Positions 21,491 to 59,300 of a stretch of 64,000 nt of DNA are shown piece by piece. Location of the stretch: contig PS015113.1 of the NCBI GenBank assembly GCA_048213135.1, positions 1 to 64,000 of the forward strand. Direction: 5' to 3'. The position numbers were made by a program, and so were the translations under genes. Within the stretch, counting starts at the first letter, position 1; every line of letters starts with the position of its first letter. This stretch comes from Reclinomonas americana ATCC 50394. Its lineage: Eukaryota. Below the pieces are notes generated by a model. That model was not told the origin of the DNA. It made no database searches and saw only the letters and a list, made by a program, of their open reading frames with translations.

Positions 21491-24400
21491 CTATGGTGGA
21501 GGCGGTGGCGCACCGAAGATGCGCTGCAATTCCTGGAGCACACGGGACATGGAGGGTCTGTCGATGGCCTTCCTCTGCACGAACGACAATGAGAAGTCGC
21601 CCGCAAAGGGTACTTGTCAACATAACCAACTCACCCAGCAAGCCGCCACCAACTCGCTCAACGCGTCGTTGAGCTGTGGGTGATCGAGCGCACCAGGCAG
21701 TCTGCCTTGGTGAACCTCCACTGGAATACGCAAACTGTCGACGCCTTTGAACGGCTCCTGTTGAGTGACGCAGTACCACAGAAGCGTCCCAAACGAAAAC
21801 ACATCGGCTCGCTCATCGTACTGCCCGGGCCCAGTGCGTCAGCAACGACATGACGAAGAACAGCACGCAGGTCGTGTCACTATACCTCTTCGCCGAGCAG
21901 CACCTCAGGAGCAGCGAATGCTGGTGTGCCCACTGGAGTCTGCAATCGTCCCAACGTGCCCTGTTCACGAGCCTCGCCAAAGTCGCACACTTTGGCGGTC
22001 TGCCGATCGCCGCTGATGAGAACATCTGCAAAGCAGGGAGGCAGTCAGAAAACGCACTTCAGTGAGAAGCAAACGCAAAAGCAACGCGAAAGGCGATGAA
22101 AGTACTCGATCGCGAGGTTGAATAGAGATAAAGGACATTGAACATCCCCTCCGGACTCCATCGGCCCAGAGAGGTGGCATCCAGAAACACAACTTTGGGG
22201 CTTTAGATCTCGATGCACCACTCTTCGCGAGTGCATGTGTTCCACCGCCAAGCCAACTTGCACCAGAAGCCGTAGCAGATGCTGTTGACCAATTCCGCTC
22301 CGCACAAGTTTGAGCAAAGTCTCAGGGAGGTCGTCAATCTTGTCTGGCCCGACATACTCAAGCACCAGTCCAGGGCCGTGAGGGTCATCTTCGCATACGG
22401 CCACCAGTTTGACAATATGCGGGTGGCTGTTCATGTATGCGAGTGGGTACGATACCGACGGGTGATATGCTCACCATGCGTGACGCAACTCCAGGCGCAT
22501 GAGCAAGCGCTCCTCATTCGTGACACACTGCATCATCTCCAGTCTGCGGTCGTCATCGGGGTGCTCAAAACGTTTGTATGCCACCACAATGCCTTCGCCG
22601 CCGACAATCATCACAGTTCGGTAGACGCGACATGTGTTCTGGCCTGCAAGAAGTCAAAATGAGTGTTCGAACACTAAACACAACCAAGGGCTTCTCCCGA
22701 GTGCAAGCGAACCAACGCCAATAAACTGTGGGCTGCCGAATTCTTCGCGCTTGATGCGCGGTGCGTGTACAAGGAGCTTCTTCTTCTCCTCGTTTAATAA
22801 CTCATCTGTAACTTGAATCTGGCTCACTCCTGCGACATCAAATCAGACGGTTTGTCAGAAGAAAGCGCAGCACGGAATGGTAATCGACGCAACGCTGGTA
22901 GGACTCAAACAAACGGTCAATGCATGCGTGCCCCGCAGGGAACAGGCATTGCAGGCAGTCTCTGATGGTGCGAACAATTCCAACGTACTCAGCGTCGGTC
23001 AGTGACGTCGATTCGGCCAAGTGCGACACGCGATTGCGCGCATTACGCATTCGGTCCACAGCATCAATCTGCATTATCGGCATGCAGTGAGGGCGACGAT
23101 TGAATTGCTTCCAATGTCGACCGCCTCACAGACCTTTTCGGTATCACTCAGCAGCCGCATCGCCACCCGGTCTTCAGCAGGTCCGGCAACATCTGCGCCG
23201 ATTCGTGTGCTCCGATTCCACAAGTCAGCGTCAGCACATCGTGCAATCGGGACGTAGGTGATCTCGAGAAGCAGGGTTGTCAGAAGGCTGACATCCATGT
23301 CTGTCACAGATCCATTCCGTGCGAATTCACACACGGCCTCGAATTTTTCGCGGAACACTTTTGCCGTTCGAGTGTGCATCTTTCCAGCGTCGTCGACCGA
23401 CATCCACACATATCTTGCGATGAATTGTCATGAGTGCTGCTCACTGCAGTGAACAGAGAGAGAGCACACAAACCTGCCACATGGACGGTCACAACAGAGA
23501 TTTGTGATGTCGAATTCGCCGGGATAGAAGCCCGAGATCAGCTGCTGGAATAGGGAGGCGAGAGCGAAGGGCACCACATTGTGCATGATCTCGGTGAGCA
23601 TGAAGATGGGTCGACGGTCACTGCAGATACTGACAGGTGAGATGTCTCGAATAAAGCAACGGATTATGGCAATGGAACAAAGTACCTCAAGAAATCCATG
23701 TGGAAGAGAGCCTCCAGCTGCTGTCGGAGACGCGCAGTCTGCTGCGTCTGCTCATCCAGGGCCAGCTGCAGGTGAGCGATTGTTGCGTCGCGAGACTCTA
23801 CTGTCTCCTGTAAGTGCTGTGAAGCAGATTGTAGCTCGGCAACAACAGCGTCGTTTTCTTGTTGTCGCTCGCGAAGACAGCGTTCAAGGCGAGTGACCGT
23901 AATATGGAGTTGTGTTCTGTCGAATTCCGCGGCACGCAGCTCGCTCAGTTGACGCTGGAGTTGCATCAAGACAGCCTCCGCCTCTTGCAGGCGACTTGAA
24001 TTGCCAGACTACAAATAACCAGCAGCGCGAGTTAGCTGAAACATCCGGATCCGAAGAAACTGCTATAGCGCACCTCTGCAGCTGATAGTAGCGGCGCATG
24101 CCGAGGAGAGGTGGTTGGTACGACTGTCACAGCAGGAAGCAAAGAAGGGTCGCCGACTGTGTTCAACAAATTGGCACTAAAGTATGTCATCACCACTTCA
24201 TGAGACGAGAAACAAACCTCCCGGAGGCGATTCTCGTACATGCCGAGAGGAGGAATCTTGCTCGACAAGCAACGTGGGCAACTTAGCCACGTCGCATTTA
24301 TCCGCGGTACGAGCCACGTGGGCAGCCGTCTTGCCGTCCTTGTTGACCCTGGGAATCAGATGCGGATACGCAGTCGCCAGGAGTTGCACAATCAACTCGT

Positions 24401-27400
24401 GGCCTTTCTCGGCGGCGTAATGCAGTGCAGTGGAACCAGCCAGCCATGCTTCGTCATTCGTCACAGCAAACACCATCTCCCGAGAACATCGTCGCTCATC
24501 GGCAAGAAGCCATTCCACCACTGCCAAGTGGCCGCCACTGGCTGCATACATGAGCGACGTCCAGCCAAAGTCGTCAACCAGCGGTGCAAGTTGAAGACCA
24601 ATTCCACTCTCCTCCCATAGATACTCCAGCACGGCGAGGTGACCACGCCAAGCAGCAAAGTGGAACGGCGAGCCTCCATGAACGTCTCGCTCATCCTCGT
24701 TCACCAACGTCTCCAGGCCCTCGTCCGCCACCAGTCGGCGCAGCGCTTCCACATCACTGTCCGCTGCCATCAACCACGCCTTCTTCCGCCTGCATCAGTC
24801 CCCGGCCGCGTAAGCGAGAAAACACAAGCTGATAAACAGAGGGATACAAACCTGTGGTGCGGCGGTTGTGATGCCAGTCGGTCAAGCATTCTGGCCACGT
24901 CATCTTTCCCAGCATCAAGAGCCACCTGGGCCGCTGTCTGGCCATCCTTGTTGATCTTCGGAATCAGATGCGGATACGCAGTCGCCAGGAGCTGCACAAC
25001 CGACTCGTGGCTGTTCTCGGCGGCATAGTGCAGTGCAGTGGAACCTGGCAGCCGTGCTCGGTCATTCGCGACAACAAGCACCATCTCCGCGGGGCATCGT
25101 CGCTCGTCAGCTAGAAGCCACTCCACAACTGCCAAGAGACCGCCGTAGGCCGCATACATGAGAGATGTCCATCCTATGTCATCAACCAGCTTTGAAAGTT
25201 GAGGACCGACGTCACTCTCCTCCCATAGATACTCCAAGACGGCAAGGTGGCCACGCCAAGCAGCACAGTGAAATGGCGAGCCTCCATAAACGCTTCGTTC
25301 TCTCTCATCCAACAGCTTCTCCGCGCCCTCATCCACCACCAACTGGCGCAATGCTTCTACATCGCCATCATCTGCCAGCAACCAAGCCTTCTTCCGCCTG
25401 TGTCAGCCACCGCGTGAGCGGTGATGTGGAAACATGATGGTGCAGTCCTGCATACCTATACAGCGGAGGCTTTGATGCCAGGCGATCCAGCAACTCGGCC
25501 ACGTCATCTTTCCCAGCATTAGCAGCCACTTCGGCGGCTGTCTTTCCATCCTTGTTCACCTTTGGAACGAGATCCGGATTCGCAGTCGCCAGGAGCTGCA
25601 CGATCGACTCGTGACCTCTCTCCGCGGCATAATGCAGTGCAGTCGAACCAGGAAGCCCTGCTTCGTCATTCGTCACAGCAAGCACCATTTCCCGTGGACA
25701 TCGCCGCTCGTCGGCCAGAAGCCACTCCACCACTGCCAGGTGACCACCGTAGGCAGCAGCCATCAGCGACGTCCCGCCATTGCCATTGACCAGTAGTGAG
25801 AGTTGAGGACCGACACCACTCTCCTCCCACAGAAACACCAGCACGGCGACATGACCATCTGAAGCAGCACAGTGGAAGGGCGAGCGTCCATAAACGTCTC
25901 GCTCTCTCTCATCCAACAGCGTCTCCGCGCCCTCATCCACCACCAGCTGGCGCAGNNNNNNNNNNNNNNNNNNNNTGCTTCCACGTCGCCATCCTCTGCC
26001 ATCAACCAAGCCTTCTTCCGCCTGCGTCAGTCCCCGGTCGAGTAAGCGAGAATGCACAAGCTGATCATGATAAACAGAGGGATACAAACCTGTAGTGCGG
26101 CGGTTGCGATGCCAGTCGATCAAGTAAGTCGGCCACGTCATTTTCACCAGCATCAGCAGCCTCTTCCGCGGCTGTGTTTCCATCCTTGTTCACTTTTGGA
26201 ACGAGATCCGGATAGGCAGTGGCCAGCAGTCGCACAATCGACTCGTTGCCGTTCTCGGCGGCATAGTGCAGTGCAGTGGAACCTGGCAGCCACGCTCGGT
26301 CATTGGTAACAGCAAGCGCCATCTCCAGTGGACATCGTCGCTTATCGGCTAAAAGCCACTCCACCACTGCCAAGTGGCCGCAGTTGGCAGCAGTCATAAG
26401 TGGCGTCCATCCATAGTCATTGACCAACTGAGCAAGTCGAGGACCAACCCCACTCTCCTCCCACAGATACTCCAGCACATTAAGGTGGCCTCGCCGAGCA
26501 GCACAGTAAAATGGCGAGCTCCCGAAAACGTCTCGCTCTCCCTCGTCCAAGAGCGTCTCTGCGCCCTCTTCCGCCACCACCTGTCGCAGCGCATCCACAT
26601 CGCCATCCGCTGCCAGCAACCAAGCCTTCTTCCGCCTGTGTCAGCCACCGCGTGAGCGGTGATGTGGAAACATGATGGTGCAGTCCTGCATACCTATACA
26701 GCGGAGGCTTTGATGCCAGGCGATCCAGCAACTCGGCCACGTCATCTTTCCCAGCATTAGCAGCCACTTCGGCGGCTGTCTTGTTCTCCTTGTTGATCTT
26801 CGGAATGAGATCCGGATAGTCGGAGGCCAGGAGTTGCACAATCGACTCGTGGCCTCTCTCCGCGGCATAATGCAGTGCAGTCGAACCAGGAAGCCCTGCT
26901 TCGTCATTCGTCACAGCAAGCACCATTTCCCGTGGACATCGCCGCTCGTCGGCCAGAAGCCACTCCACCACTGCCAGGTGACCACCGTAGGCAGCAGCCA
27001 TCAGCGACGTCCCGCCATTGCCATGGACCAGTAGTGAGAGTTGAGGACCGACACCACTCTCCTCCAACAGAAACACCAGCACGGCGACATGACCATCTGA
27101 AGCAGCACAGTGGAAGGGCGAGCGTCCATAAACGTCTCGCTCTCTCTCATCCAACAGCGTCTCCGCGCCCTCATCCACCACCAGCTGGCGCAGCGCTTCC
27201 ACATCACTGTCCGCTGCCATCAACCACGCCTTCTTCCGCCTTCGCCGGTAATTATGTAAGCGAGAAAACACAAGCTGATAAACAGAAGGGTACAAACCTG
27301 TGGTGCGGCGGTTGTGATGCCAGTCGGCNNNNNNNNNNNNNNNNNNNNNNNNNNNNNNNNNNNNNNNNNNNNNNNNNNNNNNNNNNNNNNNNNNNNNNNN

Positions 27401-30400
27401 NNNNNNNNNNNNNNNNNNNNNNNNNNNNNNNNNNNNNNNNNNNNNNNNNNNNNNNNNNNNNNNNNNNNNNNNNNNNNNNNNNNNNNNNNNNNNNNNNNNN
27501 NNNNNNNNNNNNNNNNNNNNNNNNNNNNNNNNNNNNNNNNNNNNNNNNNNNNNNNNNNNNNNNNNNNNNNNNNNNNNNNNNNNNNNNNNNNNNNNNNNNN
27601 NNNNNNNNNNNNNNNNNNNNNNNNNNNNNNNNNNNNNNNNNNNNNNNNNNNNNNNNNNNNNNNNNNNNNNNNNNNNNNNNNNNNNNNGGCCAGGAGTCGC
27701 ACAATCGACTCGTGGCCTTTCTCGGCGGCATAATGCAGTGCAGTGGAGCCAGGCAGCCGTGCTCGGTCATTCGTAACAGCAAGCGCCATCTCCAGTGGAC
27801 ATCGTCGCTTATCGGCTAAAAGCCACTCCACCACTGCCAGGTGACCGTCACCGGCAGCATCCATGAGTGGCGTCCAGCCTACGTCGTCCACCAGCTCAGC
27901 AAGTTGAGGACCAACCCCACTCTCCTCCCACAGATACTCCAGCACATCAAGGTGGCCTCGCTGAGCAGCACAGTAAAATGGCGAGCTCCCGAAAACGTCT
28001 CGCTCTCCCTCGCCCAAGAGCGTCTCTGCGCCCTCGTTTGCCACCATCTCCCGCAGTGCTTCCACATCACCCTCGTAGGCCATCAACCAAGCCTTCTTCC
28101 GCCTGTGTCAACCACACGTAAGCAAAAAAAAATGAGTCGGTAGACAGACAGCAGACGAACACCTGTAGTGCGGCGACTGCGACGCAAGACGATGTAGCAG
28201 CGCGGCCACGGTGTACTTGCCGTTGGAAAATGCCACTTGTGCGGCTGTCTTCCCATCCTTGTTTACCTTCGGAACGAGGTCTGGGTAGGCAGTCGCCAGA
28301 AGTTGAACAATCGACTCGTGGCCTTTCTCGGCGGCATAATGCAGTGCAGTGGAGCCAGGCAGCCGTGCTCGGTCATTCGTAACAGCAAGCGCCATCTCCA
28401 GTGGACATCGTCGCTTATCGGCTAAAAGCCACTCCACCACTGCCAGGTGACCGTCACCGGCAGCAGTCATAAGTGGCGTCCAGCCCAAGTCGTCAACCAG
28501 TTGCGCAAGTTGAGGACCGACGCCACTCTCCTCCCACAGATACTCCAGCACGGAAAGGTGGCCTGACAATACCGCACAATAAAACGGCGAGCTCCCATAG
28601 ACGTCTCGCTCTCTCTCATCCAGAAGCGTCTCTGCGCCCTCTTCCGCCACCACCTGTCGCAGCGCATCCACGTCGCCATCATCTGCCATCAACCAAGCCT
28701 TCTTCCGCCTGCACAAGTGACTGCATGAGTGGCGATCAAGAGTAGTGATGTAGGAGGCATGGTGGGTGGTACATATCAACACACCTGTAATGCGGCAGTT
28801 GCGATGCCAGTCGGTCAAGCAGCGCGGCCACGGTGTACTTGCCGTTGGAAAATGCCACTTGTGCGGCTGTCTTCCCATCCTTGTTGACCTTGAGAAGGAG
28901 ATCCGGATACGCAGTGACCAGCACTTGCACCATCAACTCGTGGCCTCCCTCGGCAGCAAAGTGCAGTGCAGTCGAACCAGGAAGCCATGCGTCATCGGAT
29001 GTAACAGCAAGCGCCATCTCCAGTGGACATCGTCGCTTATCGGCTAAAAGCCACTCCACCACTGCCAGGTGACCGCCACCGGCAGCAGTCATCAGCGACG
29101 TCCCGCCATAGTCATTGACCAGCTGAGCAAGTTGAGGACCGACGCCACTTTCCTCCCACAGGTACTCCAGCACGGCTAGGTGACCTTCCGAAGCAGCACA
29201 GTGAAATGGCGAGCCTCCATAGACGCTTCGCTCTCTCTCATCCAACATCGTCCCCGCGCCCTCTTCCGCCACCAACTGGCGAAGTGCTTCCACATCACCA
29301 TCCGCTGCCATCAACCACGCTTTCTTCCGTCTGCACATGTCACCGTGTAAGTGGTGAGCAGCCATGAAAGGAGATAGACTGAAGCATACCGGTGGTGCGG
29401 CGGTTGCGACGCGAGTTGGTCCAGCAACTCGGCCACGTCATCTTTCCCAGCATTAGCAGCCACTTGGGCGGCTGTCTTTCCATCCTTGTTCACCTTTGGA
29501 ACGAGATCCGGATGGGCAGCGATCAGTATTCGGACAATCGACTCGTGGCCTTGCTCAGCGGCATAGTGCAGTGCAGTCGAACCAGGAAGCCGTGCTGCAT
29601 CAGATGAAACAGCAAGTACCATCTCCCGCGGACATCGCCGCTCGTCGGCTAGAAGCCACTCCACCACTGCCAGGTGACCGCCACCGGCAGCATCCATGAG
29701 TGGCGTCCCGCTGTAGTTACTGACTACCAGGGCAAGTTGAGGACCGACTCCACTCTCCTCCCACAAATACTCCAGCACATTAAGGTGGCCTCGCCGAGCA
29801 GCACAGTGGAACAAGTTGCCAAAAACGTCTCGCTCCCTCTCATCCAACAGCGTCTCTGCGCCCTCTTCCGCCACCACCTGTCGCAGCGCATCCACGTCGC
29901 CATCATCTGCCATCAACCAAGCCTTCTTCCGCCTGCACAAGTGACTGCATGAGTGGCGATCAAGAGTAGCGATGTAGGAGGCATGGTGGGTGGTACATGT
30001 CAACACACCTGTAATGCGGCGGTTGCGATGCCAGTCGGTCAAGCAGCGCGGCCACGGCGCTCTCGCCGCTGGAGAGAGCCAGTTGCGCGGCTGTTTTGCC
30101 ATCCTTGTTGACCTTGAGAAGGAGATCCGGATACGCAGTGACCAGCACTTGCACCATCAACTTGTGGCCTCCCTCGGCAGCAAAGTGCAGTGCAGTGGAA
30201 CCAGGAAGCCGTGCTCGATCATTTGTTCCAGCAAGCACCATCGCCCGTTGACATCGTTGCTCGTCGGCTAGAAGCCACTCCACCACTGCCAGGTGGCCGT
30301 CACACGCGGCCACCATGAGTGGCGTCCCGCCATAGTTATCGACAAGCTGTGCGAGTCGAGCGCCGACGCCACTCTCCTCCCACAAGTATTCCAAGACGGC

Positions 30401-31236
30401 TAAGTGACCTCGCTCAGCAGCACACTGAAACGGCGAGCGTCCATAAACGTCTCGCTCTCTCTCATCCAGCAGCGCCTCTGCACCCTCGTCCACCACCAAT
30501 CGGCGCAGCGCTTCCACATCACAGTCCGCTGCCATCAACCAAGCCTTCTTCCGCCTGTGTAAGCCACCGTGTGAGTGGTGAGCAGCCATGTAAGGAGGTG
30601 GAGTCTAGACTAGTACTGAAGCATACCGGTGGTGCGGCGGTTGCGACGCGAGTCGGTCCAGCAACTTGGCCACGTCTTCTTCACCAGAATTAACAGCAAC
30701 TTGGGCGGCTGTCTTTCCATCCTTGTTCACCTTTCGAACGAGATCCGGATGGGCAGCGATCAGTATTCGGACAATCGACTCGTGGCCTTGCTCAGCGGCA
30801 TAGTGCAGTGCAGTCGAACCAGCCAGCCGTGCTCGCTCACTTGTAACAGCAAGCACCATTTCCCGTGGACATCGTCGCTCATCGGCTAAAAGCCACTTCA
30901 CCACAGCCAGGTGACCGCCGTTGGCAGCATCCATGAGTGGCGTCCCGCTGTAGTTACTGACCACCAGGGCAAGTTGAGGACCGACGCCACTCCCCTCCCA
31001 CAGGTACTCCAAGACGGTAAGGTGGCCTTGCCAAGCAGCACAATGAAATGCAGATTGGCCGCCTTCAGCCATCTCCTCCTTTGTCAGCAGTGTTGCTGCG
31101 CCGTCACTGGCCACCAGTGCCCGCAGCGCATCCACGTCTCCATCCTCGGCCATCTCCCATGCTTTTTTCCGCGCACTAACAGAATATGTGAGTGAACACA
31201 CTCGCACAAACACACAGCCACACGCACTCGCCTCAT
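21491..31236 (-). CDS. Giant ankyrin (at least 11 exon modules) - coiled coil - HEPN (DZIP3-like) - TKL-type kinase protein
   Basis: Start micro-exon 31236-31232; ankyrin exons 31175 to 24218 joined by phase-2 introns; then exons 24156-24074, 24008-23686 (coiled coil), 23629-23474, 23413-23134 (MDVSLLTTLLLEI), 23068- (DAVDRMRNARNRVSH). Kinase exons carry IGVGQNTCRVY, VAYK, HPHIVKL, HRDLKPQN, DFG, GTPAFAAPE, DVFSFG, CW..DRPSM; stop at 21491. Confidence 0.75.
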
Positions 31237-31388
31237 CGTCACACGTTGCGTTGATTCCCCACGTGGTTCCTGCGTATTGACGGATCGTACGTATAGTATT
31301 GACACCGACGTGTCGATGCGTCCCCCAACGACGGAAGGACGCGACGTTCCTCCCTTGTCAGTCCCTCCCTCGATCCTCTTCTCCCTCA

Positions 31389-33635
31389 ATGACCGTCCTC
31401 CGCAGCGGCGAATGGCGCCTCCGTCGCCGCCCACAAGGCACCCTCACCGAAGACGACTTCTCCTGGCACGAGGTGCAAATCGACAAGACCGCCCTCGCCG
31501 AAGGCGAAGTCATCGTGCGCACAATCTACCTCAGCCTCGACCCCGTTGCGTAAACCCTCCCCCAAGTGCACACACACACACACACACACACACAAAGAGA
31601 GAAAGAGAGAGAAAGAGCAAGAAAAGAATGAGAATGCATGTTTGCATGCATTTCATCTCCGTTTCTCCGCCTGCTCTCCACAGTCCAACCGCATCTGGGC
31701 CTCCTCTCAAGAAGGCTACCTCCCCCCAGTGGAGATCGGCGAGGTCTTTCGTGGCATGACTGTCGGCCAAGTGGTCGCCGTGGCCTCCACCGGAAAACCA
31801 CACTTTGCAGTCGACGATATCATCGTGAGTGCCTTTGCTCCCCCCCCCCCCTCCTCTCCCGCTCTCGCACGCTCGCTCACNNNNNNNNNNNNNNNNNNNN
31901 ACCCGAAACCAACTTTGTCAGTCGACGATATCATCGTGAGTGCCTTTTCGCCTCCCCCCCCCCCCCCCCCCCCCCCCCCTTCCTCCTCCCCTTCTCCTCT
32001 GCCTTACTGGAGCAGACTGGCGGCTGGGGCTGGCGTGAATATGCGGTTCTCACGCCCGGCGACCAGCGGCAGTGTCGCAAGGTGCCGCACCCGCGTGACT
32101 CGGGCATTCCGCTCAGCGCGTACATGGGTCTGCTGAGCTTCATTGGCGCGACGGCGTATTTCGGTGTCGTGGATGTGTTGCGCCCGAAGGCCGGCGAGAC
32201 GTTTGTCGTGAATGCTGCTGGTGTGGGCCTTGCGGGGAAAGAAAGAGAGAAGGCGGGGAGAGAGGAAAAGTAGGGCAGTGCTCTTTGATTGCGGAAGAGG
32301 CGACGCGGGTAGACGAGGAGGAGAACAGGGGAGCCTGGGAGAGAGGAGTAGGGTGACATCCTGTGATTGCGGTAGTGGCGATGCAGGGAGACGAGGAGGG
32401 AACTGGGTGGAGAGTGGGATAGAGAGAAAGCAAGAAGGGCGCCGTCCTTTGATAGCGGTGGTCGGCAAGCGGGATTTTCGCTGTTGTTGGATTGCTCACT
32501 GCGTGTGTTGACAGCCGGAGCTGTGGGCAGCATTGCGGGTCAGATCGCCAAGTCGCTCGGATGCTACGTGGTGGGCATTGCCGGTGCCGACGACAAGTGT
32601 GGTGCGTTTCTTAGTTTTTTTATCTCGCTCTCCCACACACACGAACACGCGATTTCTTCTCGATATCGTTGTTCTTTGCGTTCTGTCACACGCCTCTTTC
32701 TTCTGTTGCACATCGCCCGTGTGACAACAAGCGTGGTTGTCTTGCTACCCCCTCGTTCTCTCACTCTGACACTCTCACACACTCCCACACTCACACATAC
32801 GGTTTACACGATGTCATTGTTCTTTGCGTTTCTGTGACACGTCTCATACGTCGTGGCATTGCCAGCGTCGACGACAAGTGTACTTGTCTTGTCTCTCTCT
32901 CTCTCTCTCTCTCTTCCTCTCTTTCTCTCAGTCTCTCTCTCCCCACTCAAGTGAACACAAGAGTGGACAGAAGATTTCTGCTCCGGAGCGGAGTAGAAGC
33001 AAGCCATTCTGTCTGGTCCCCTCCCTTTCTTCGTAGTGTCAGTCTCTTTATCGCTGGTCTTTCTCTCCCCTCCCCCGTTCCGCCTCCTCTCTCTCCCCTC
33101 TCTCTTCCCCTTCCCCCCTCACTCTCTCTTCCCCCTTCGCCCCCCTTCCCCCTCTCTTCCCCCTCTCCCCCTCCCCTTCCCTCTCTCTTCCCCCTTTCCC
33201 CCCTTCTCTCCCNNNNNNNNNNNNNNNNNNNNCCCCTTCGCTCCCCTTCGCTCCCCTTCGCTTCCCCTTCGCTTCCCCTTCGCTTCCCCCTTCGCTTCCC
33301 CCTTCGCTTCCCCCTCGCTTCCCCTTCGCTTCCCCTTTGCTTCCCCTCCCCCTCCTCTCTTTTCCCTTTTCTTACTCTTCCCTTCCCTTCGCCCGCCAAT
33401 CAGGTTCATCATCCTCGACTACGCCAGCCGCTACGGCGAGTGCTTCGCCGAGCTCGGCAAGCTGCTGAAAGCCGGCAAGGTCAAGTACCGCGTGGACACG
33501 GTCGACGGCCTTCGCAGCGCCCCGAGCGCCCTCAATCGCCTCTTTGACGGCACCAACACCGGCAAGCTGTGCGTCCGCGTGACGCCCGACGTGGACGGTA
33601 GCACCTCCACACCCACTCTCCGTGCGCGCCTGTGA
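31389..33635 (+). CDS. NADP-dependent alkenal/prostaglandin reductase family oxidoreductase (PTGR1/CurA-like MDR); middle exons probably lost in a gap
   Basis: WRLRRRPQG..DDF, EGEVIVRTIYLSLDP, YLPPVEIGEV, GWREYA, GATAYFG..PKAGETFVVNAA|AGAVGSIAGQIAK..GCYVVGIAGADDK, DGLRSAPSALNRLFDGTNTGKL. Confidence 0.9.
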
Positions 33636-43118: not shown

Positions 43119-48185
<5,067 letters not shown>

Positions 48186-48429
48186 CTGCGACACGTGTGT
48201 GTGTGCGCGTGAAAGTGTGATCAGCCATCTCGCGCGCGTGCCACACAAAAAGCATCTCGTTTTGACGCGCGCGCATGCATGCACACGTGGTACGACACAA
48301 CGCAGAAGAGAGAGCACCATGAGCACGAACCTTTTGCCCCACGCGCGCACGGGCCGAGTTGAAGCAAGTGCGATGGAGCGCCAGTGGACGGAATTCAGCG
48401 GTTGTGTGGTGTGCCTAAGAGTGACTTTG

Positions 48430-50354
48430 ATGGCGACTTGGGGCGAGTTCGCTCGCTGGGCCAAGTCGTCGCTCATTGACGACTACTTCCGCGTGATAGA
48501 GTTACGCGCTTGAACTGTGTGTGTGTGTGACAGAAAAAGTCGCTCACTTTTTGTCACAGTGTGGCAAGTGAGCGACGCGAGGTGGAAGTGCACAGCGCAG
48601 TGCTCATTCAGCGCGTGTTCCGCGGCTACAAGACACGCCAGCGACTTGCGCGTTTGCTGGCCTCCACACTGCTCATTCAACGCGCCTATCGCGGGCACCT
48701 CGGTCGCCGACGAGTGCGTCGTTTGCGCAAGCAGGCGCACGAGCAGCGGCAGCGCGTGTTCTTTGCGCACGCGGCGAAGCAGATTCAGAAGCTCGTGCGT
48801 GGCGTCATTGTGCGCAAGTATGTGTGCGACTATTACGCGCGACGGAGGGCGATTGTGGAGGCAACGGAGAGGGCGCAGGCGGTCAAGGCCGAGGCGGAGG
48901 TGTATGCGAGTACGGTGCGGCAGCAGCTGCAAAAGACGGAGTTGGAGCAGCTGTCGTCGGCGTTTGCGTCGGCCACGGGTGCGCTGCATCATTTGATTAG
49001 TACGGTGGCGCAGCCGGGTGTCTACAGTGCGGCGACGGGGTTGACGCAGCCGGAGGCGTTTGGTGAGCCTGTGGAGGATCACTTGAGGAGATCGTTAGTG
49101 GGGAAGCTCGTTGCGTAAGGATGAAGGGTGATGGGCGAGGGTGGAAGGGGAGATTTATTTCGAATCGAGTCTTTGTTCTCTCGTCTTCTTTCGCTTCTCT
49201 TCCTCTACTCCCTCCCGTGTCGACTCCTCGTTCTCGTTTTCGTTGCTCACTTCTCTCTTCTTTTCTCGCATCGCTTTTGATATCCACTCCTCCCCACTTC
49301 TCTCTTTTCCTTTCGCCTCTCCTGCTCACTTCTCGTCTTCTTTCGCTTCTCCTCCTCCACTCCTTCCCGTATCGTCTCCTCCGTCGCATTTGCGTCGCTC
49401 ACCTCTCCCTTCTTTTCTCACTTCGCTTTTGCTCTTCAGTCCTCTTCGATTCTCCCCTTCCCTGTACGAGCCTCTCCTGTTTCCCCTCTCCTCCTCCTCT
49501 GCTTCTCATATCTACTGTCTTCATAACATCGCTGCCATCCATTGCTTCCGCTTCTATTCCTTCTTTCATTGACGTCACCTCCCCTTCTCCCCCCTTCTCT
49601 CCTTTCCCTATTCCTCCACCTCCCTTCTCCCTTCTCCCTTCTCCCTTCTCCCTTCTCCCTCTCCTCTCCTCTCTTCCCCTTTTCCCCCTTCCCCCTTCCC
49701 TCTTTACCCCTCTTCTCACCCCTCCCTTCCCCCCTTTTCAGAGACGAACAAAACGACCCCTCCCGGCCTCCGCTCTGGCCGCCTCCTCCGCGTCAGCTGC
49801 ACAGGGTACTGCAGGTGGCACAGGCACACTAACAGCGCCGGTGAATCCACCCTCGCCAATGGTGGTGAGTGCGAATCCGGCGGCCGATGTGATGCTGCTG
49901 AATCCCCAGGAGCGTCGAAAGCGCGCCATGGGACCCTTCAAGCCGGCCTTTATGGTGGAGTCGATGAAATCGCGCGCCCTCAACCTCACCCTCCAAGCCA
50001 GCACGCCGTACGCCATTGTCGACGAGGCACTGCGCGACGAGCGGCACGTGGAGAACAAGTACCTGCAACACATACAAGCCGTGCCGTTCCAGCAGGTGCG
50101 CAAGCCCGAACCGCTGCTTCACGAGCGTGGTGCCATTCTCCCGGAACCATTCGTCGGCGCTCAACGAGATCGTGGCGACAAGCCAAAACTATTGGTTCGT
50201 TGTGTGATTTTTGATGGTCGTGGTCATGCATGAGAGAAAACGGCGTATTTACAGTTTCTTCTATCAGCCGTTCTTGACAACAGTCAAGACGCACGTGATG
50301 TTCGACGGCGTACCGGAGCTGCGCAAGAGCCCACCTGCAGCTCCAGGGCGATGA
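48430..50354 (+). CDS. SPATA17: Spermatogenesis-associated 17 (IQ-motif flagellar protein)
   Basis: MAT..DYFR, three IQ motifs (IQRVFRGY, IQRAYRGHLGR, IQKLVRG..VRKYVCDYY), LHHLISTVAQPGVY and later GPFKP; the 3' end is approximate. Confidence 0.82.
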
Positions 50355-53331: not shown

Positions 53332-56182
53332 CTGCCATGGCTGTCGACGGCAGCGGCAGTAGTGGTGCAACCGCTGCCAACGGCGATGGGAATGGGGCGG
53401 CGCCTGAGGTGGACCCGCTCGATGCATTCATGGTCGACGTGGCGAGCACCGTGCAGCAGCTGGATGGTGGCGATTCGGTGCGTTTTCCTCGCTCTCCCTC
53501 GCTCTCCCTCACCTCGACTGCTTCTCACCACTCATTTTCCGCAGCTGGTACGTGATCGACTGGGAGGCTTGGTATCGAACAAGCCGGCCGCATCCATGGC
53601 CATCTCGCTCGACGACATTATGAGCGGCAAGATGGACGTCGATCAGCCAATCAAGCAGGAGTCCGACGATGTAGAGCAGGAGGCGAATGGCGCGGGTGGC
53701 GACAGCGATGAGTATCGACAGCGCTTCCTCGAGGCGATGCGCAAGGCCAGTGACGCGCCGGCGGCAGGTGGTAGCAGTGGTGGTTCTGGTTCTGGTGGTG
53801 CCTCCGGCGGTGGTGCAGCTTCGTCGTCGTCGACTGGCGGCGGCGCGGCCAATGGTGACGACGATGACGACGAGGATGATATGGCGGGTGGCGGTCGTGG
53901 CGACGATGACGATGAGTACATGGGTACGGTGGTGGAGTCGGAGGCGGAGAAGAGCAACAAGAAGGACCTGAAGCCAGTCGACCACTCCAAGATGAACTAC
54001 GAGAAGTTTACGAAGAATTTTTGGATCGAGCCACGTGATGTGGCACGTCTGACAGACGCGGAGATCAAGGCACAGTTGGCCGCCGACAAGGTTCGCATTC
54101 GCGGCAAGGGTTGCCCGCGCCCGATCCGTGCCTGGCACCAGTGTGGTTTGCCCACGAAAATGTTGCGTCTACCTCTTCTCTCCTCCTCAGTCCACCGCTC
54201 TTTACCTCTTTTGCCTGTCCTCCTCTTTTCTCCACTCCTTGCCTCTCCTCCTCCTTCTTCCACTCCTTGCCTCTCCTCCACTTTCTTCCACTCTTTTGCC
54301 TCTCCTCCTCTTTCTTCCACTTTGCCTCTCCTTTCATTTTTCCACCGCTCTTTACCTCTCCTCTGTTTCCACTCTTTGCATCGCCTCCTCTCTCTTCCAC
54401 TCTTTGCCTCTCCTCCTCTTTCTTTCACTCTTTGCCTCTCCTCCTCTCTCTTCCGCTCTTTCCTCTTTCTTTCACTGTTTGCCTCTCCTCCTCTCTCTTC
54501 CACTCTTTGCCTCTCCTCTCCTCTCTTCCACTCTTTGCCTCTCTCTCCTCTCTTCCACTCTTTTGCCTCTCCTCCTCTCTTTCTTCCAACGCTCCTCCTC
54601 ACACACTCCCTTGTCTCCCTCCGACCAGTGTGGACGTGATTAACAAGTCGGGCTTTGAGCGGCCATTTGCGATTCAGCAGCAGGCGATTCCGGCCATCAT
54701 GTCGGGCCGCGATGTGATTGGCATTGCGAAGACGGGCTCTGGCAAGACGCTGGCGTTTGTGTTGCCGATGTTGCGCCACATCAAGGATCAACCGCCACTA
54801 CGAGAGGGCGATGGACCGATTGCACTCATCATGGCGCCCACGCGCGAGCTGGCCACGCAGATCTACTCGGACACGAAGAAGTTTGCGAGCCCTCTCGGTC
54901 TGCGCACGGTGTGTGTATACGGCGGCGCCGGCATTGCCGAGCAGATTGCCGATCTGAAACGTGGTGCCGAGATCATTGTGTGTACACCAGGGCGCATGAT
55001 CGACTTGCTGTGTGCCAACCGCGGTCGTTGCGTTCTCCCCTTCTCTCCCACTGCCTCCAACACCGCCCACCCTCCTCCACTCACGCGTCATTTGTGTGGA
55101 ATACAGGTGTGACGAACTTGACTCGTGTGACGTACGTTGTGCTTGACGAGGCCGATCGCATGTTTGATTTGGGATTCGGTCCGCAGATCACCCGCATCAC
55201 GGAGAATGTGCGACCGGACCGACAGACGGTGATGTTCTCGGCCACGTTTCCGCGTGCCGTCGAGAAGCTGGCCCGCGGCATTCTGCGCAAGCCGATCGAG
55301 ATCGAGGTGGGCGGTCGCAGCGTGGCCTCGCAGAGTGTGACGCAGTATGTGGAGGTCATGGAGGAGGAGGCCAAGTTCCTGCGGCTGCTCACGCTGCTCG
55401 GTGAATGGTACGAGCGCGGCAGTGTGTTGGTGTTTGTTGATCGACAAGAAGAGTGTGACTCCTTGTTCCACGACCTCATGCGTGCCGGTTACGATTGCCT
55501 CTCGCTCCATGGTGGCAAGGTACGCTCCCCTCGCCGCACTGTGTCTTGTGTGTCTCCACATTTGGTGTGCCCAACTGGTCGTTCCCCTCCCCGCTCGCCG
55601 TGCAGGAACAAGTGGACCGTGAGTACACGATTGCGCAGTTCAAGGCCAAGGAGAAGACGCTGATGGTGGCCACGTCGGTGGCCGCGCGCGGCCTGGACGT
55701 CAAGGATCTGGTGCTGGTCATCAACTACAACGCACCGAATCACTACGAAGACTACGTGCATCGCGTCGGTCGCACAGGTCGTGCCGGACGCACCGGCACC
55801 GCGTACACCTTCATGACGCCGGCTGAGGAGCGGTACGCCCCCGACTTGGCCAAGGCGCTCGAGCAGAGCAACAATGCCGTGCCGGAGCAGTTGCGCAAGA
55901 TGGCCGACGGTGAGTTTGCACTGTGTTTTGTTTGCATGTATGCATGATGCTCAACAAAACACGTGTGTTGTGTGCGCAGCGTTCCTCAGCAAGCGCAAGG
56001 AGGGCACAGTGAAACACTTTTCCAATGCAGGGTTTGGTGGACGCGGATTCAAGTTTGACGAGACGGAGGAGAAGGCGAAGCGTGAGGCGAAACGACGCGA
56101 GGCACGCGCGATGGGCTTGTTGACGGAGGAGGACGCCGAGAGCGACCACGAAGACGACAAGGGTGGCGACGAGGACGGTGAT
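53332..56182 (+). CDS. DDX46: DEAD-box RNA helicase DDX46/Prp5 (partial at both ends)
   Basis: [95 protein letters not shown]. Confidence 0.93.
54170..54600 (+). repeat. Intronic ~30-bp pyrimidine minisatellite
   Basis: Repeated ctctttgcctctcctcctct..ttcca inside a DDX46 intron. Confidence 0.85.
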
Positions 56183-56394
56183 NNNNNNNNNNNNNNNNNN
56201 NNNNNNNNNNNNNNNNNNNNNNNNNNNNNNNNNNNNNNNNNNNNNNNNNNNNNNNNNNNNNNNNNNNNNNNNNNNNNNNNNNNNNNNNNNNNNNNNNNNN
56301 NNNNNNNNNNNNNNNNNNNNNNNNNNNNNNNNNNNNNNNNNNNNNNNNNNNNNNNNNNNNNNNNNNNNNNNNNNNNNNNNNNNNNNNNNNNNNN

Positions 56395-59300
56395 CCGTCA
56401 TGCAACTCTCCGCAGAAGCAGCGGCAGCAGCAGCGCCACTGTCGGTGGCTGATGCAAGCAGCGCGCTCAGGTCGTCATCCTGTACACAGACAGGAAGAGT
56501 CAGTCATCGTTGCGAGACGTGGGTGGCACAGCACATGCTCCAACCGACCGAAATGTCTCGACCGAGCACCTTGAACACGGCGCGCACGTCGTCACGCTGC
56601 AGCTTGCCACCGCATCCCACGGCCACGGTCGACACTGCATTGGCAATGCTCTGCGCCACCTCCGGGTCGACCGAAGCCAGTGAGTTTGCGATCTGCAACG
56701 AGAGAGAGGAGTGAGATACGTAGAGGAGACTGTCCCTCTCGGTGCCACTCGACCAACCGTCGTCTCAGCATGGCGCAAGCGATCGTGGCACAATTCGAGC
56801 AACGATCGATGCAACGTCAGCACGGCGCGGGCATTCTCCACAGCCAGCATGTCTTGCAAGTGGTGTCGGGCATCGGTGCCGCTAAAGCTGTCGACGTACA
56901 CTTGCAGTGCAGCCAGTGACCGTGTCAGATCGGGCGATTGCAGGTCGTGGATGCACAGCTGAATCGTGTGCAGCAACAACTGCGGGAAAATGTCAAAGTG
57001 AGTGAGGGAGAGGCGCGCGACTTTCGTGTCTCGTGTCTCTCACCTCGACGTCGCCACCTATGGTCTGCAGCAGATTGGCGCGCACGGCGCGAATGCGACT
57101 CCTTGCGTGTGAGATGTGAATCTCTTGCTCCGTCTGCACCTCTTCGTCTGTGCACGACAATGGTGAGAAGCGAGACGGGGAGTGTACGACATCCATACCC
57201 ACAAACCATCGTCATCGCTGTTGCCACGCATTCTCGCAATGCTGGCAATCGTGTCGTGCACCTGCCGATTCAGTTCGCCCGAGTCCCGCAGTGCTCCCTG
57301 CGCGAACGGTGGGTGATTGATAGGCACAATCAGTAGACTCTCGTTTGACTCGATCACCAACCTGCAGCTCGGCAACATGTGACTCTGATGATGCAGAGGA
57401 TGACTCGGACGACTTGATGGCCTCGTTGAGGATCGCCACTTGCGCCAACACAACATCCTCCAGCAGAATCTGCAGCGGCTGCAGACGCTGGGAGTTGGCG
57501 GGTCGCGACGGATCCAGAATCGCCAGCTGATTGCGAATGTCCGAGATGCAGTGTGCCACCACGGCGCGCAAAATCCACTGGTCGTCGCCCGCACCCTTTT
57601 GCGCCGCAGCGAGAGCCGGTGACGCAAACTGGACAGGCACCAAAAGTACAAAGTTGAGTCACAAACACACAGAGTACGGGATCGAGAGTGCGATACATGC
57701 CTTTTCCAACTGGAGCAAAATCCGATTGCGTGCATCGACCAGCGCATCCGAAGCCCACTGTGTGAAGGCAATGTGAGCACAAACTACACGTTTCATACAC
57801 GCAGTGGTGCGCCAATAACAAACCGATCGATCCATTTCGCACTCGGACTGCAAAAAATCGGGCAGCGCCGACCAGGCCGACTGGAAGCGGTGCCAGTGTG
57901 TGGCGAAATCCTGCGTCAACCGAATAACATCGACGGCGCTGGCCGGCTGCGTGGAACCAAACAGTTCGCGGCACCACTTCATCGTCTCGTCCGACACCTC
58001 GTCAAAGTCGTCGCGTGTGGTGGTCGTTCCTCGTCCGTGTCTCGCCTCGGCCGATCCGTTCGCATGCCTGCGCGTTGTCGGCGAAGTATATGAGACACAC
58101 TTTTGCACTTGACCACAGAAGCAATCTCCAAAAACACACGCACCCATTGTGCAAACTCTGCACGGGCATGTGCTCCACTTGTTCCGCCAGCACCGCGAAT
58201 TTCTCCTCCAGCACCGCCAAGTCAAGGTCTGCATCGGGCACAAAGACCGGCAACCCTCTCGACGACCGATGATCATTGCCGTGCTGCAACAGCGACTGCA
58301 TGCGCCACAGGCCGCTCACGGCCACTGGTCGACAATCGTGTGCAAATCGTCGCTGGAAGCTTCGAATCGCGGCAACATCGGCATCAGAGCCAGCACCACC
58401 ATGTTGAGAGATTACCGCCCGGGACTCCTCACCCCACTGTTGCAAGAATGCTTGGAGCTGCAGTGCACATGAGACACATACGCGGAAGCACAGCTGGAGG
58501 CAAGAAAAAAGCAGCGCACCTTCTTGGCCACAGCCGTGTACGAGGGTGCAAGCTCAGTGGCTTCCACCAGCGTACGGAAATGGCGTGTGACCAGCTCGGC
58601 AGCACTGCGCTGTTGAGATGACAGGCCGTGTGCTGCGGGGGGTGGTTCAACGTACGAGTCGCGGACGGACTTCCGAAAATCCTTCATGGTGCGTTTGAGA
58701 CCGACAACAAGATCGTGGCCTTGCAACTGTGTGCATATCATGCATGAGTCATGGTGGGGAGGGCACTCGTGACAAGAAGAAACGCGCACACACCAAGGCC
58801 TTGAGTCTTTCGATTTCGGCGAGTAACCGTCGGTTTTCCTCGCGCAATTCCTCAATCTCGGCCGACAGAGTGTCGTTGCCCGAGGCTGTCGACAGATGAT
58901 GTCAGCACTATGCGTAATGCGCAACGAGCGACGCAGAAACTACGGACCTTGTGAGCGCAGGCGCGAGTTCTCGGTCTCGAGTTGAAGCACTTTGTTGGCG
59001 AGGTCTTCGAGTTGCTGCTTGCGCGATGCAGATTTCGCTTTCTTGCTCGCCTGCATCGCCTCCAGCTCTTTCTGTAGTCTCTCCACCAACTCCTGCGAGG
59101 CGATGTGCGTGAGAGGAATGCACATCATGTGGTGCCAGAGAGCTAAAGAGGGGAAAGGCTCCACCTTCAACGGCAGCAGCTTTCGTTGGCTCTCCTCAAA
59201 CTGGCCGCTGAGTGCAGCCAGCTGCTCCGTGTAGCGGGTGTTTTCGACACTGCACACAGACGTGATCAATGTCAGGTCAACGTCTCGGAACAAAAACAAG

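Follow-up and report, generated by a model that had tools for sequence, protein, structure and literature searches.

Gene A, on the minus strand of a 64,000-nucleotide (nt) stretch of the Reclinomonas americana ATCC 50394 genome (assembly GCA_048213135.1, contig PS015113.1, positions 1 to 64,000; hereafter the window), is probably an intracellular ankyrin sensor-effector. The protein would join an array of ankyrin (ANK) modules to a coiled coil, a HEPN-like RNase and a kinase. Its sensor would be diversified by unequal recombination and by selection on the binding faces of the modules. We put the probability of this reading at about 0.62. The array itself is real, with corrections to a preliminary description of this DNA.

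Tandem exons encoding ankyrin modules

At least 11 ANK-module exons follow one another between 24218 and 31175, each beginning with the same module opening. Gap-free repeat units measure 602-622 nt. They consist of a complete internal module exon of 543-549 nt, in every case divisible by 3, and an inter-module intron of 57-76 nt with GT-AG ends. This matches the unit of ~610-620 nt, with a ~545-nt exon and a ~55-75-nt intron, given in the preliminary description. Phase 2 precedes every gene A module. The phase-2 junctions described earlier are borne out by an open frame running from a start microexon through modules 1-5, across modules 7-8 and through module 10; the 3' junctions of modules 6 and 9, which contain gaps, were checked by motif and register only. 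These gaps are 359 N at 27329-27687 (module 6) and 20 N at 25956-25975 (module 9). Because they may hide further units, the count of 11 is a minimum. A single module matches Pfam Ank_2 with an E value of 2e-22, and mean pairwise nucleotide identity among the gene A modules is 79%.

A second gene, gene B, lies in tandem on the downstream side of gene A. It has a start microexon, six ANK modules, a short last exon and no kinase, in an open frame of 1,095 codons. The internal modules of both genes are phase 2-2 and 543-552 nt long. It had been claimed that any unit could be gained, lost or skipped without a frameshift. This is right for modules 1-10, which are symmetric, and wrong for module 11, which at 572 nt has phase 2-1 and is therefore not skippable in frame. 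The last module of gene B likewise ends in phase 1. The first intron of gene A (31231-31176) has a GC donor, where gene B and a second copy of the locus, on contig C33, have GT. The acceptor before module 7 is AAG. Transcription of every unit as its own mRNA or gene is unlikely, with only 57-76-nt introns between units.

AlphaFold2, run on module 5 with an 80-row alignment, predicts five helix-turn-helix repeats at a predicted local distance difference test score (pLDDT) of 96, with a low-confidence tail. The earlier count of about four repeats per exon is thereby replaced by five. The best solved-structure matches of the module are whole five-repeat designed ankyrin repeat proteins (DARPins), with a target template modelling score of about 0.8, and repeat five lines up with the C-terminal end of the DARPins. 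Many family members in the genome have a single such module. Judging from this model, each exon may encode a self-contained, capped five-repeat domain, and the array would be a string of individual binders and not a continuous solenoid.

Module turnover and signs of selection on the binding face

We aligned 39 modules, 17 from the window and 22 from C33. Gaps or a frameshift cut four of them short, and two 3' fragments beside gaps in C33 were excluded. Identical runs exceed the Bonferroni threshold in 11 of 741 module pairs, and in eight of these both modules belong to the same gene; when the comparison is limited to third positions, just two pairs retain significant runs. A sliding best-match map identifies two mosaics in gene A. 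The 5' end of module 3 is 98% like module 5 and its 3' third 96-98% like module 1, and in module 4 the middle is 99% like module 5 and the 3' part 92-98% like module 2. Module 11 shares 90% identity with the module that ends a kinase-less gene on C33. Exact repeats recur at a two-unit spacing of 1224-1238 nt. Shared tracts end inside exons in 47 of 50 cases, and exons make up about 89% of the array. Tract ends thus fall in exons at the rate set by exon length, which argues for homologous mid-exon exchange, not intron-bounded cassette swapping. Intron-targeted recombination is ruled out by the same tract ends, and the shuffling of intact exon cassettes proposed in the preliminary description gives way to modules that are chimeras. 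These patterns support module turnover by what appears to be unequal recombination.

The second locus copy points the same way. C33 is colinear with the window from 13.3 to 56.2 kb, with identities of 92.6-98.6% over seven flank blocks. Each of three single-copy probes tried matches exactly one further full-length copy, at 96-97% identity; the assembly therefore holds two haplotypes or subgenomes. Between the same flanks the window has two genes and C33 has three: one with eight modules and a kinase, one with six and a kinase, and one lacking a kinase, with eight module starts and two gaps. The arrays of the two C33 kinase genes contain no N. Module number is variable, as had been expected, at least 11 against 8 and 6 against at least 8 between the two copies in this one assembly. 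Such differences in number and composition fit DNA recombination better than exon skipping. Across the HEPN and kinase regions of the three kinase genes, synonymous divergence (dS) is 0.64-0.79, and modules compared across the two copies have a mean identity of 71-77%. Set against the flank identities, these values make the genes much older than the flank divergence. They may be long-kept divergent haplotypes or the outcome of differential loss of old tandem paralogs. A piece of neighbouring DNA of ~540 nt (20423-21188; 15582-16123) is repeated after each tandem gene, including in the C33 copy, beside purine-rich microsatellites, and marks the duplication unit.

Several observations concern the contigs themselves. 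The second module of the kinase-less C33 gene (L004:1811-2355) carries a one-base frameshift, either an assembly error or a dead module. Colinearity with C33 ends at ~13300, at what could be either a scaffold join or a rearrangement. A second copy of window 6500-7500 lies on C107, and one of 57200-58400 on C32. A third gene hidden in the window was rejected: no orphan contig of the subtype was seen, one scan having scored 40 of 248 candidates. A 1,598-aa frame on C242 turned out to be an N gap.

Elsewhere in the family, two or three modules are joined by different junctions, either a repeated start microexon or a separate phase-2 donor. Multi-module sensors therefore arose more than once. At L037:5363-6969, three modules are linked by the repeated start microexon, a second route to an in-frame array.

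Could the array instead serve to make many isoforms from one gene, module exons being skipped in frame so that every cell has a repertoire of sensors? We consider this unlikely. Modules 1-10 are symmetric with lengths in multiples of 3, and the phase-2 repeat exons of brown algal ROCO genes are reported to be alternatively spliced in the available text of PMC11378527. Skipping would also bypass the 1-nt frameshift in the C33 module, and the AAG acceptor before module 7 is weaker. That frameshift, however, may come from misassembly or mark a dead copy. A tandem exon duplication can survive only if its phase is symmetric, according to the accessible part of PMC3341825. Symmetry is thus a survival condition for duplicated exons and no evidence of skipping. 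The sections available from PMC6142364 link exon skipping to short exons between long introns and name short-intron exceptions; exons of 546 nt with introns of 57-76 nt are the reverse of that layout. By this analogy, in-frame skipping of 546-nt exons between 60-nt introns would be unlikely, and the introns are too short to hold spare exons.

Variation among the 39 modules is concentrated on the ankyrin binding face, in line with the earlier suggestion of a diversifying recognition surface. We compared 27 positions, which we take to be equivalent to the randomised positions of DARPins, with the remainder. Entropy is 1.57 against 0.81 bits, and the ratio of nonsynonymous to synonymous substitution (dN/dS) is 0.59 against 0.24. 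None of 20,000 permutations reached the observed contrast. Codon model M2a was compared with M1a, giving twice the log-likelihood difference (2dL) of 69 with one tree and 49 with three trees, at an omega of 2.3-2.5. Sites 47, 48, 84, 113 and 165 are assigned to the class with this omega in both runs. In simulations of a recombining null, 0 of 24 reached a 2dL of 49, the maximum being 25.7. The evidence for positive selection on the binding face, drawn from these codon comparisons, is moderate.

The same data bear on whether the array is a side effect of a tandem locus prone to recombination, with extra modules near neutral and variable positions merely relaxed. Pooled dN/dS at the binding positions is below 1, and gene B has no effector domains. 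Outside the locus, none of 33 same-strand module spacings is under 678 nt, and the tight runs inspected hold two or three modules, so that few suffice. Against this, 38 of 39 modules are open-framed, with a framework dN/dS of 0.24 at a dS of about 0.7. The selection test stands above all 24 nulls, and arrays of several modules evolved repeatedly, using other kinds of junction. A neutral by-product is improbable on this evidence.

Putative effector domains, proposed function and locus features

One stop-free frame leads from module 10 to 21491, taking in a linker, the coiled coil, a helical domain on three exons and a kinase on six, and the introns of this downstream part are all GT-AG. With 11 modules, the 23-exon model predicts a product of ~2,657 aa. 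The ~650 aa after the array comprise the coiled coil, the helical domain and the kinase, with no ROC-COR, NACHT or NB-ARC in the gene model. The kinase retains VAYK, HRDLKPQN, DFG and APE, with an atypical glycine loop, and scores above the Pfam Pkinase cut-off on two exons. Across the family, HRD is present in 42 of 42 cases and DFG in 36 of 39.

The helical domain is probably a HEPN domain, on the strength of sequence comparisons. The genome holds 42 matches to its HEPN-like exon, and the R-x4-H motif is conserved in all 42 homologous exons. Sub-threshold Pfam matches are to HEPN_DZIP3 and HEPN_Swt1, with intron-split pieces matching two different parts of PF18738. Using the read-through frame of a relative, the ESM Atlas returned a score of 0.96 to clusters in which 11% of members have DUF4559 and 11% HEPN_DZIP3, and of 0.92 to a cluster where the share is 38%. 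A fold search with a model of pLDDT 51 gave its best Z, 7.0, to generic bundles. Csm6 scored Z 6.5 (root-mean-square deviation (rmsd) 4.3, 117 aligned) and the sacsin HEPN at Z 5.7 (rmsd 3.8, 98 aligned). No homolog of the domain was found among 136 candidates. Its profile, run against 1.84 billion representatives, found one match, a bacterial repeat protein judged spurious, and a PDB sequence search found only a weak PCNA match.

At two other loci (L025:5739-6848 and L026:5812-7029), the same HEPN-like and kinase exons are preceded by WD40 repeats in place of ankyrin. This reads as a sensor swap within a putative HEPN-kinase family. A different HEPN_DZIP3-like stretch (L043:3926-4153, 16.6 bits) lies on contig C8750, which carries WD40 repeats, and is outside the kinase family.

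We propose the following origin and mode of action. The family's usual first intron, phase 2 and following a start microexon, would have been the starting point of the array. A further phase-2 donor, arising where an ankyrin exon ends, would then have created a 0.6-kb unit whose duplication or deletion keeps the reading frame whatever the register. Diversity would come from gene conversion and unequal crossing-over, both inside each tandem gene and from one to another, with selection acting on it at the binding faces. Diversification would thus proceed over evolutionary time, not via splicing. Each module may bind its own ligand, a foreign protein or altered self. Binding would cluster the protein through its coiled coil and switch on the kinase and a dimer-dependent RNase. 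The role would be defence or non-self recognition, and kinase-less gene B could be a decoy, a helper or a module reservoir.

Several points weigh against this proposal. The immune role would rest on analogy, and the splicing of all 23 gene A exons is a prediction. No RNA dataset was listed as matching 28110-31250, and 2 of the 21 RNA runs under the species label yielded 0 reads, a result that says nothing about expression. In none of the scans does the helical domain reach the Pfam HEPN cut-offs (12.6-16.8 bits, with 27 needed). Its Atlas recognition value of 1943 is under the guide of 2300, which weakens the score of 0.96, and its structure model, with introns retained, is poor at pLDDT 51. 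Library bias explains part of the top ranking of DARPins, which predominate among ankyrins of five repeats with solved structures. For the binding positions, pooled dN/dS is 0.59-0.67, with no whole site class above 1. Three of the five robust sites are at DARPin-equivalent positions; the other two, 113 and 165, are not on the DARPin list. The codon test was our own implementation, with optimiser noise visible as negative null values. C33 may be a homeolog or an old duplicate, not an allele. Finally, both arrays with most modules carry gaps, and short-read assembly of near-identical repeats can chimerise or collapse units.

A non-immune signalling scaffold, or a factor for self or mating recognition, is a remote alternative. 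The helical domain would then be a non-catalytic HEPN-like domain or an unrelated bundle. Ankyrin kinases are common signalling proteins, the HEPN identity is under database thresholds, and allorecognition, as treated in the available part of PMC13449251, would also be compatible with deep divergence between the copies of a locus. The motif R-x4-H is nonetheless retained in 42 of 42 exons, and the Atlas neighbours are HEPN families. Moreover, lineage-specific expansions of DZIP3-type HEPN domains fused to ankyrin, NACHT or DEATH are tied to defence in the portion of PMC3710099 at hand.

That module-number differences and mosaics are mostly short-read assembly artefacts is very improbable: N gaps lie within two of five arrays and exact repeats reach 159-293 nt, but three arrays (6, 6 and 8 modules) are gap-free, cross-copy modules are on average only 71-77% identical and so are no mis-joins of one another, and two contigs from DNA runs, probably of the source sample and so not independent, match over 405 and 464 nt across module junctions with zero differences. 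We give little credence to an extended form of the sensor-effector proposal. It would be a natural "multi-DARPin" immune receptor, up to a dozen capped ankyrin binders, each evolving on its own, on an RNase-kinase, with deeply divergent haplotypes, a kinase-less module reservoir and within-clone variation by mitotic recombination or in-frame exon skipping.

Features of the locus are collected in Table 1. Gene A stands head-to-head with a plus-strand gene ~150 nt away (31236-31393), and this spacer differs strongly between the locus copies. The translation of the neighbour reads like an NADP-dependent oxidoreductase, two pieces having no Pfam match. Six short pieces of neighbouring genes matched no Pfam family. 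The exons at window 53500-56500 are presumably those of a DEAD-box helicase of the Prp5/DDX46 type, and 47400-48500 we take to resemble Uso1/p115.

Table 1. Features of the ankyrin locus, in window coordinates; minus-strand exons start at the higher number.
Feature	Position	Strand
Gene A start microexon, 5 coding nt, phase 2, GC donor	31232..31236	-
ANK module 1, 549 nt, phase 2-2	30627..31175	-
ANK module 2, 546 nt	30009..30554	-
ANK module 3, 543 nt, mosaic	29390..29932	-
ANK module 4, 546 nt, mosaic	28785..29330	-
ANK module 5, 546 nt, structure predicted	28163..28708	-
ANK module 6, split by 359-N gap, ~100 nt expected missing, extra unit may be hidden	27297..28102	-
ANK module 7, 546 nt, AAG acceptor, 95% identity to module 9	26694..27239	-
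ANK module 8, 546 nt	26090..26635	-
ANK module 9, 546 nt plus 20-N placeholder, flanks in register	25456..26021	-
ANK module 10, 546 nt	24852..25397	-
ANK module 11, 572 nt, phase 2-1	24218..24789	-
Linker exon (24156-24074) and coiled-coil exon (24008-23686)	23686..24156	-
HEPN-like domain, exons 23620-23474, 23413-23134, 23068-22894, R-x4-H motif	22894..23620	-
Protein kinase domain, six exons, stop at 21491	21491..22829	-
Spacer between tandem genes, holds duplicated piece of DNA at 15582-16123	20423..21188	
Gene B, module starts 19908, 19289, 18671, 18053, 17440, 16827	16218..19969	-

Comparison with known systems

An ankyrin profile search for longer proteins returned, among the best 120 of 169 matches, generic ankyrins with at most 45% local identity, and the module layout was not recognised among them. 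In a literature search whose coverage mostly left out subscription papers, we found no paper on HEPN, ankyrin and kinase together in protists or choanoflagellates, and none on tandem duplication of symmetric ankyrin exons. Very little is known about immune receptors in free-living microbial eukaryotes.

Engineered multi-domain DARPins are a comparable design. They too place capped five-repeat ankyrin binders with variable binding faces in series. The R. americana array is natural and exon-encoded, with longer inter-repeat loops, and the likeness is a design analogy, not kinship. Single modules are predicted to be small, well-folding domains, with which ligands could be fished directly.

RNase L has the order ANK, kinase fold, KEN, and its kinase fold is a pseudokinase. 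Like the RNase L and IRE1 KEN proteins, as covered in the available text of PMC3710099, gene A would place an ankyrin sensor, a kinase fold and a HEPN-type RNase in one chain. Its order is instead ANK, coiled coil, HEPN, kinase, its kinase motifs are intact, and its HEPN-like domain resembles the DZIP3, CXorf38 and Swt1 types, not KEN. It has about 55 ankyrin repeats and belongs to a family of ~40 members in the assembly. The HEPN domains of DZIP3/hRUL138 (PF18738) and CXorf38/DUF4559 (PF15112) share with it R-x4-H, the nearest Atlas clusters, lineage-specific expansion and ankyrin fusion. The gene A domain differs in lying below Pfam cut-offs, and the table rows available from PMC3710099 list no kinase fusion for either of these families.

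The exon-shuffling LRR-ROCO and NB-ARC-TPR candidate receptors of brown algae, as described in the accessible parts of PMC3341825 and PMC11378527, are likewise repeat sensors built from equal-length symmetric exons, phase 2 in the ROCO LRRs. They also combine a diversifying binding face with a downstream signalling domain. There a 72-nt exon encodes one repeat, whereas the 546-nt exon of gene A would encode a capped five-repeat domain. Gene A lacks ROC-COR and NB-ARC, and its introns are too short for spare exons. Exon symmetry in itself is ordinary.

Fungal NLRs of Podospora with WD40, ANK or TPR repeats of high internal conservation (HIC) offer a further parallel. In the available text of PMC4986451 and PMC13449251 they vary in repeat number, a polymorphism that for gene A is seen in two copies of one assembly. 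Their repeats are exchanged inside a gene and from gene to gene, through unequal crossing-over or conversion, and positive selection acts on the concave ankyrin face. Unlike them, gene A has no central NACHT or NB-ARC, its sensor is N-terminal, and its unit is a five-repeat domain plus intron. Most of its modules are 70-85% alike, below the 85% amino acid threshold used for HIC in those texts.

With the fungal and brown algal candidate receptors the locus shares a signature of repeat turnover, inter-gene exchange and binding-face selection. The unit is different, a whole five-repeat binder, and so is the putative effector, a HEPN-like RNase and a kinase that would amount to the parts of RNase L reordered. 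If true, this would be a third independent route to a diversifying sensor. By analogy, the locus would work most like fungal HIC NLR sensors and the shuffled receptors of brown algae, and is a member of neither group.

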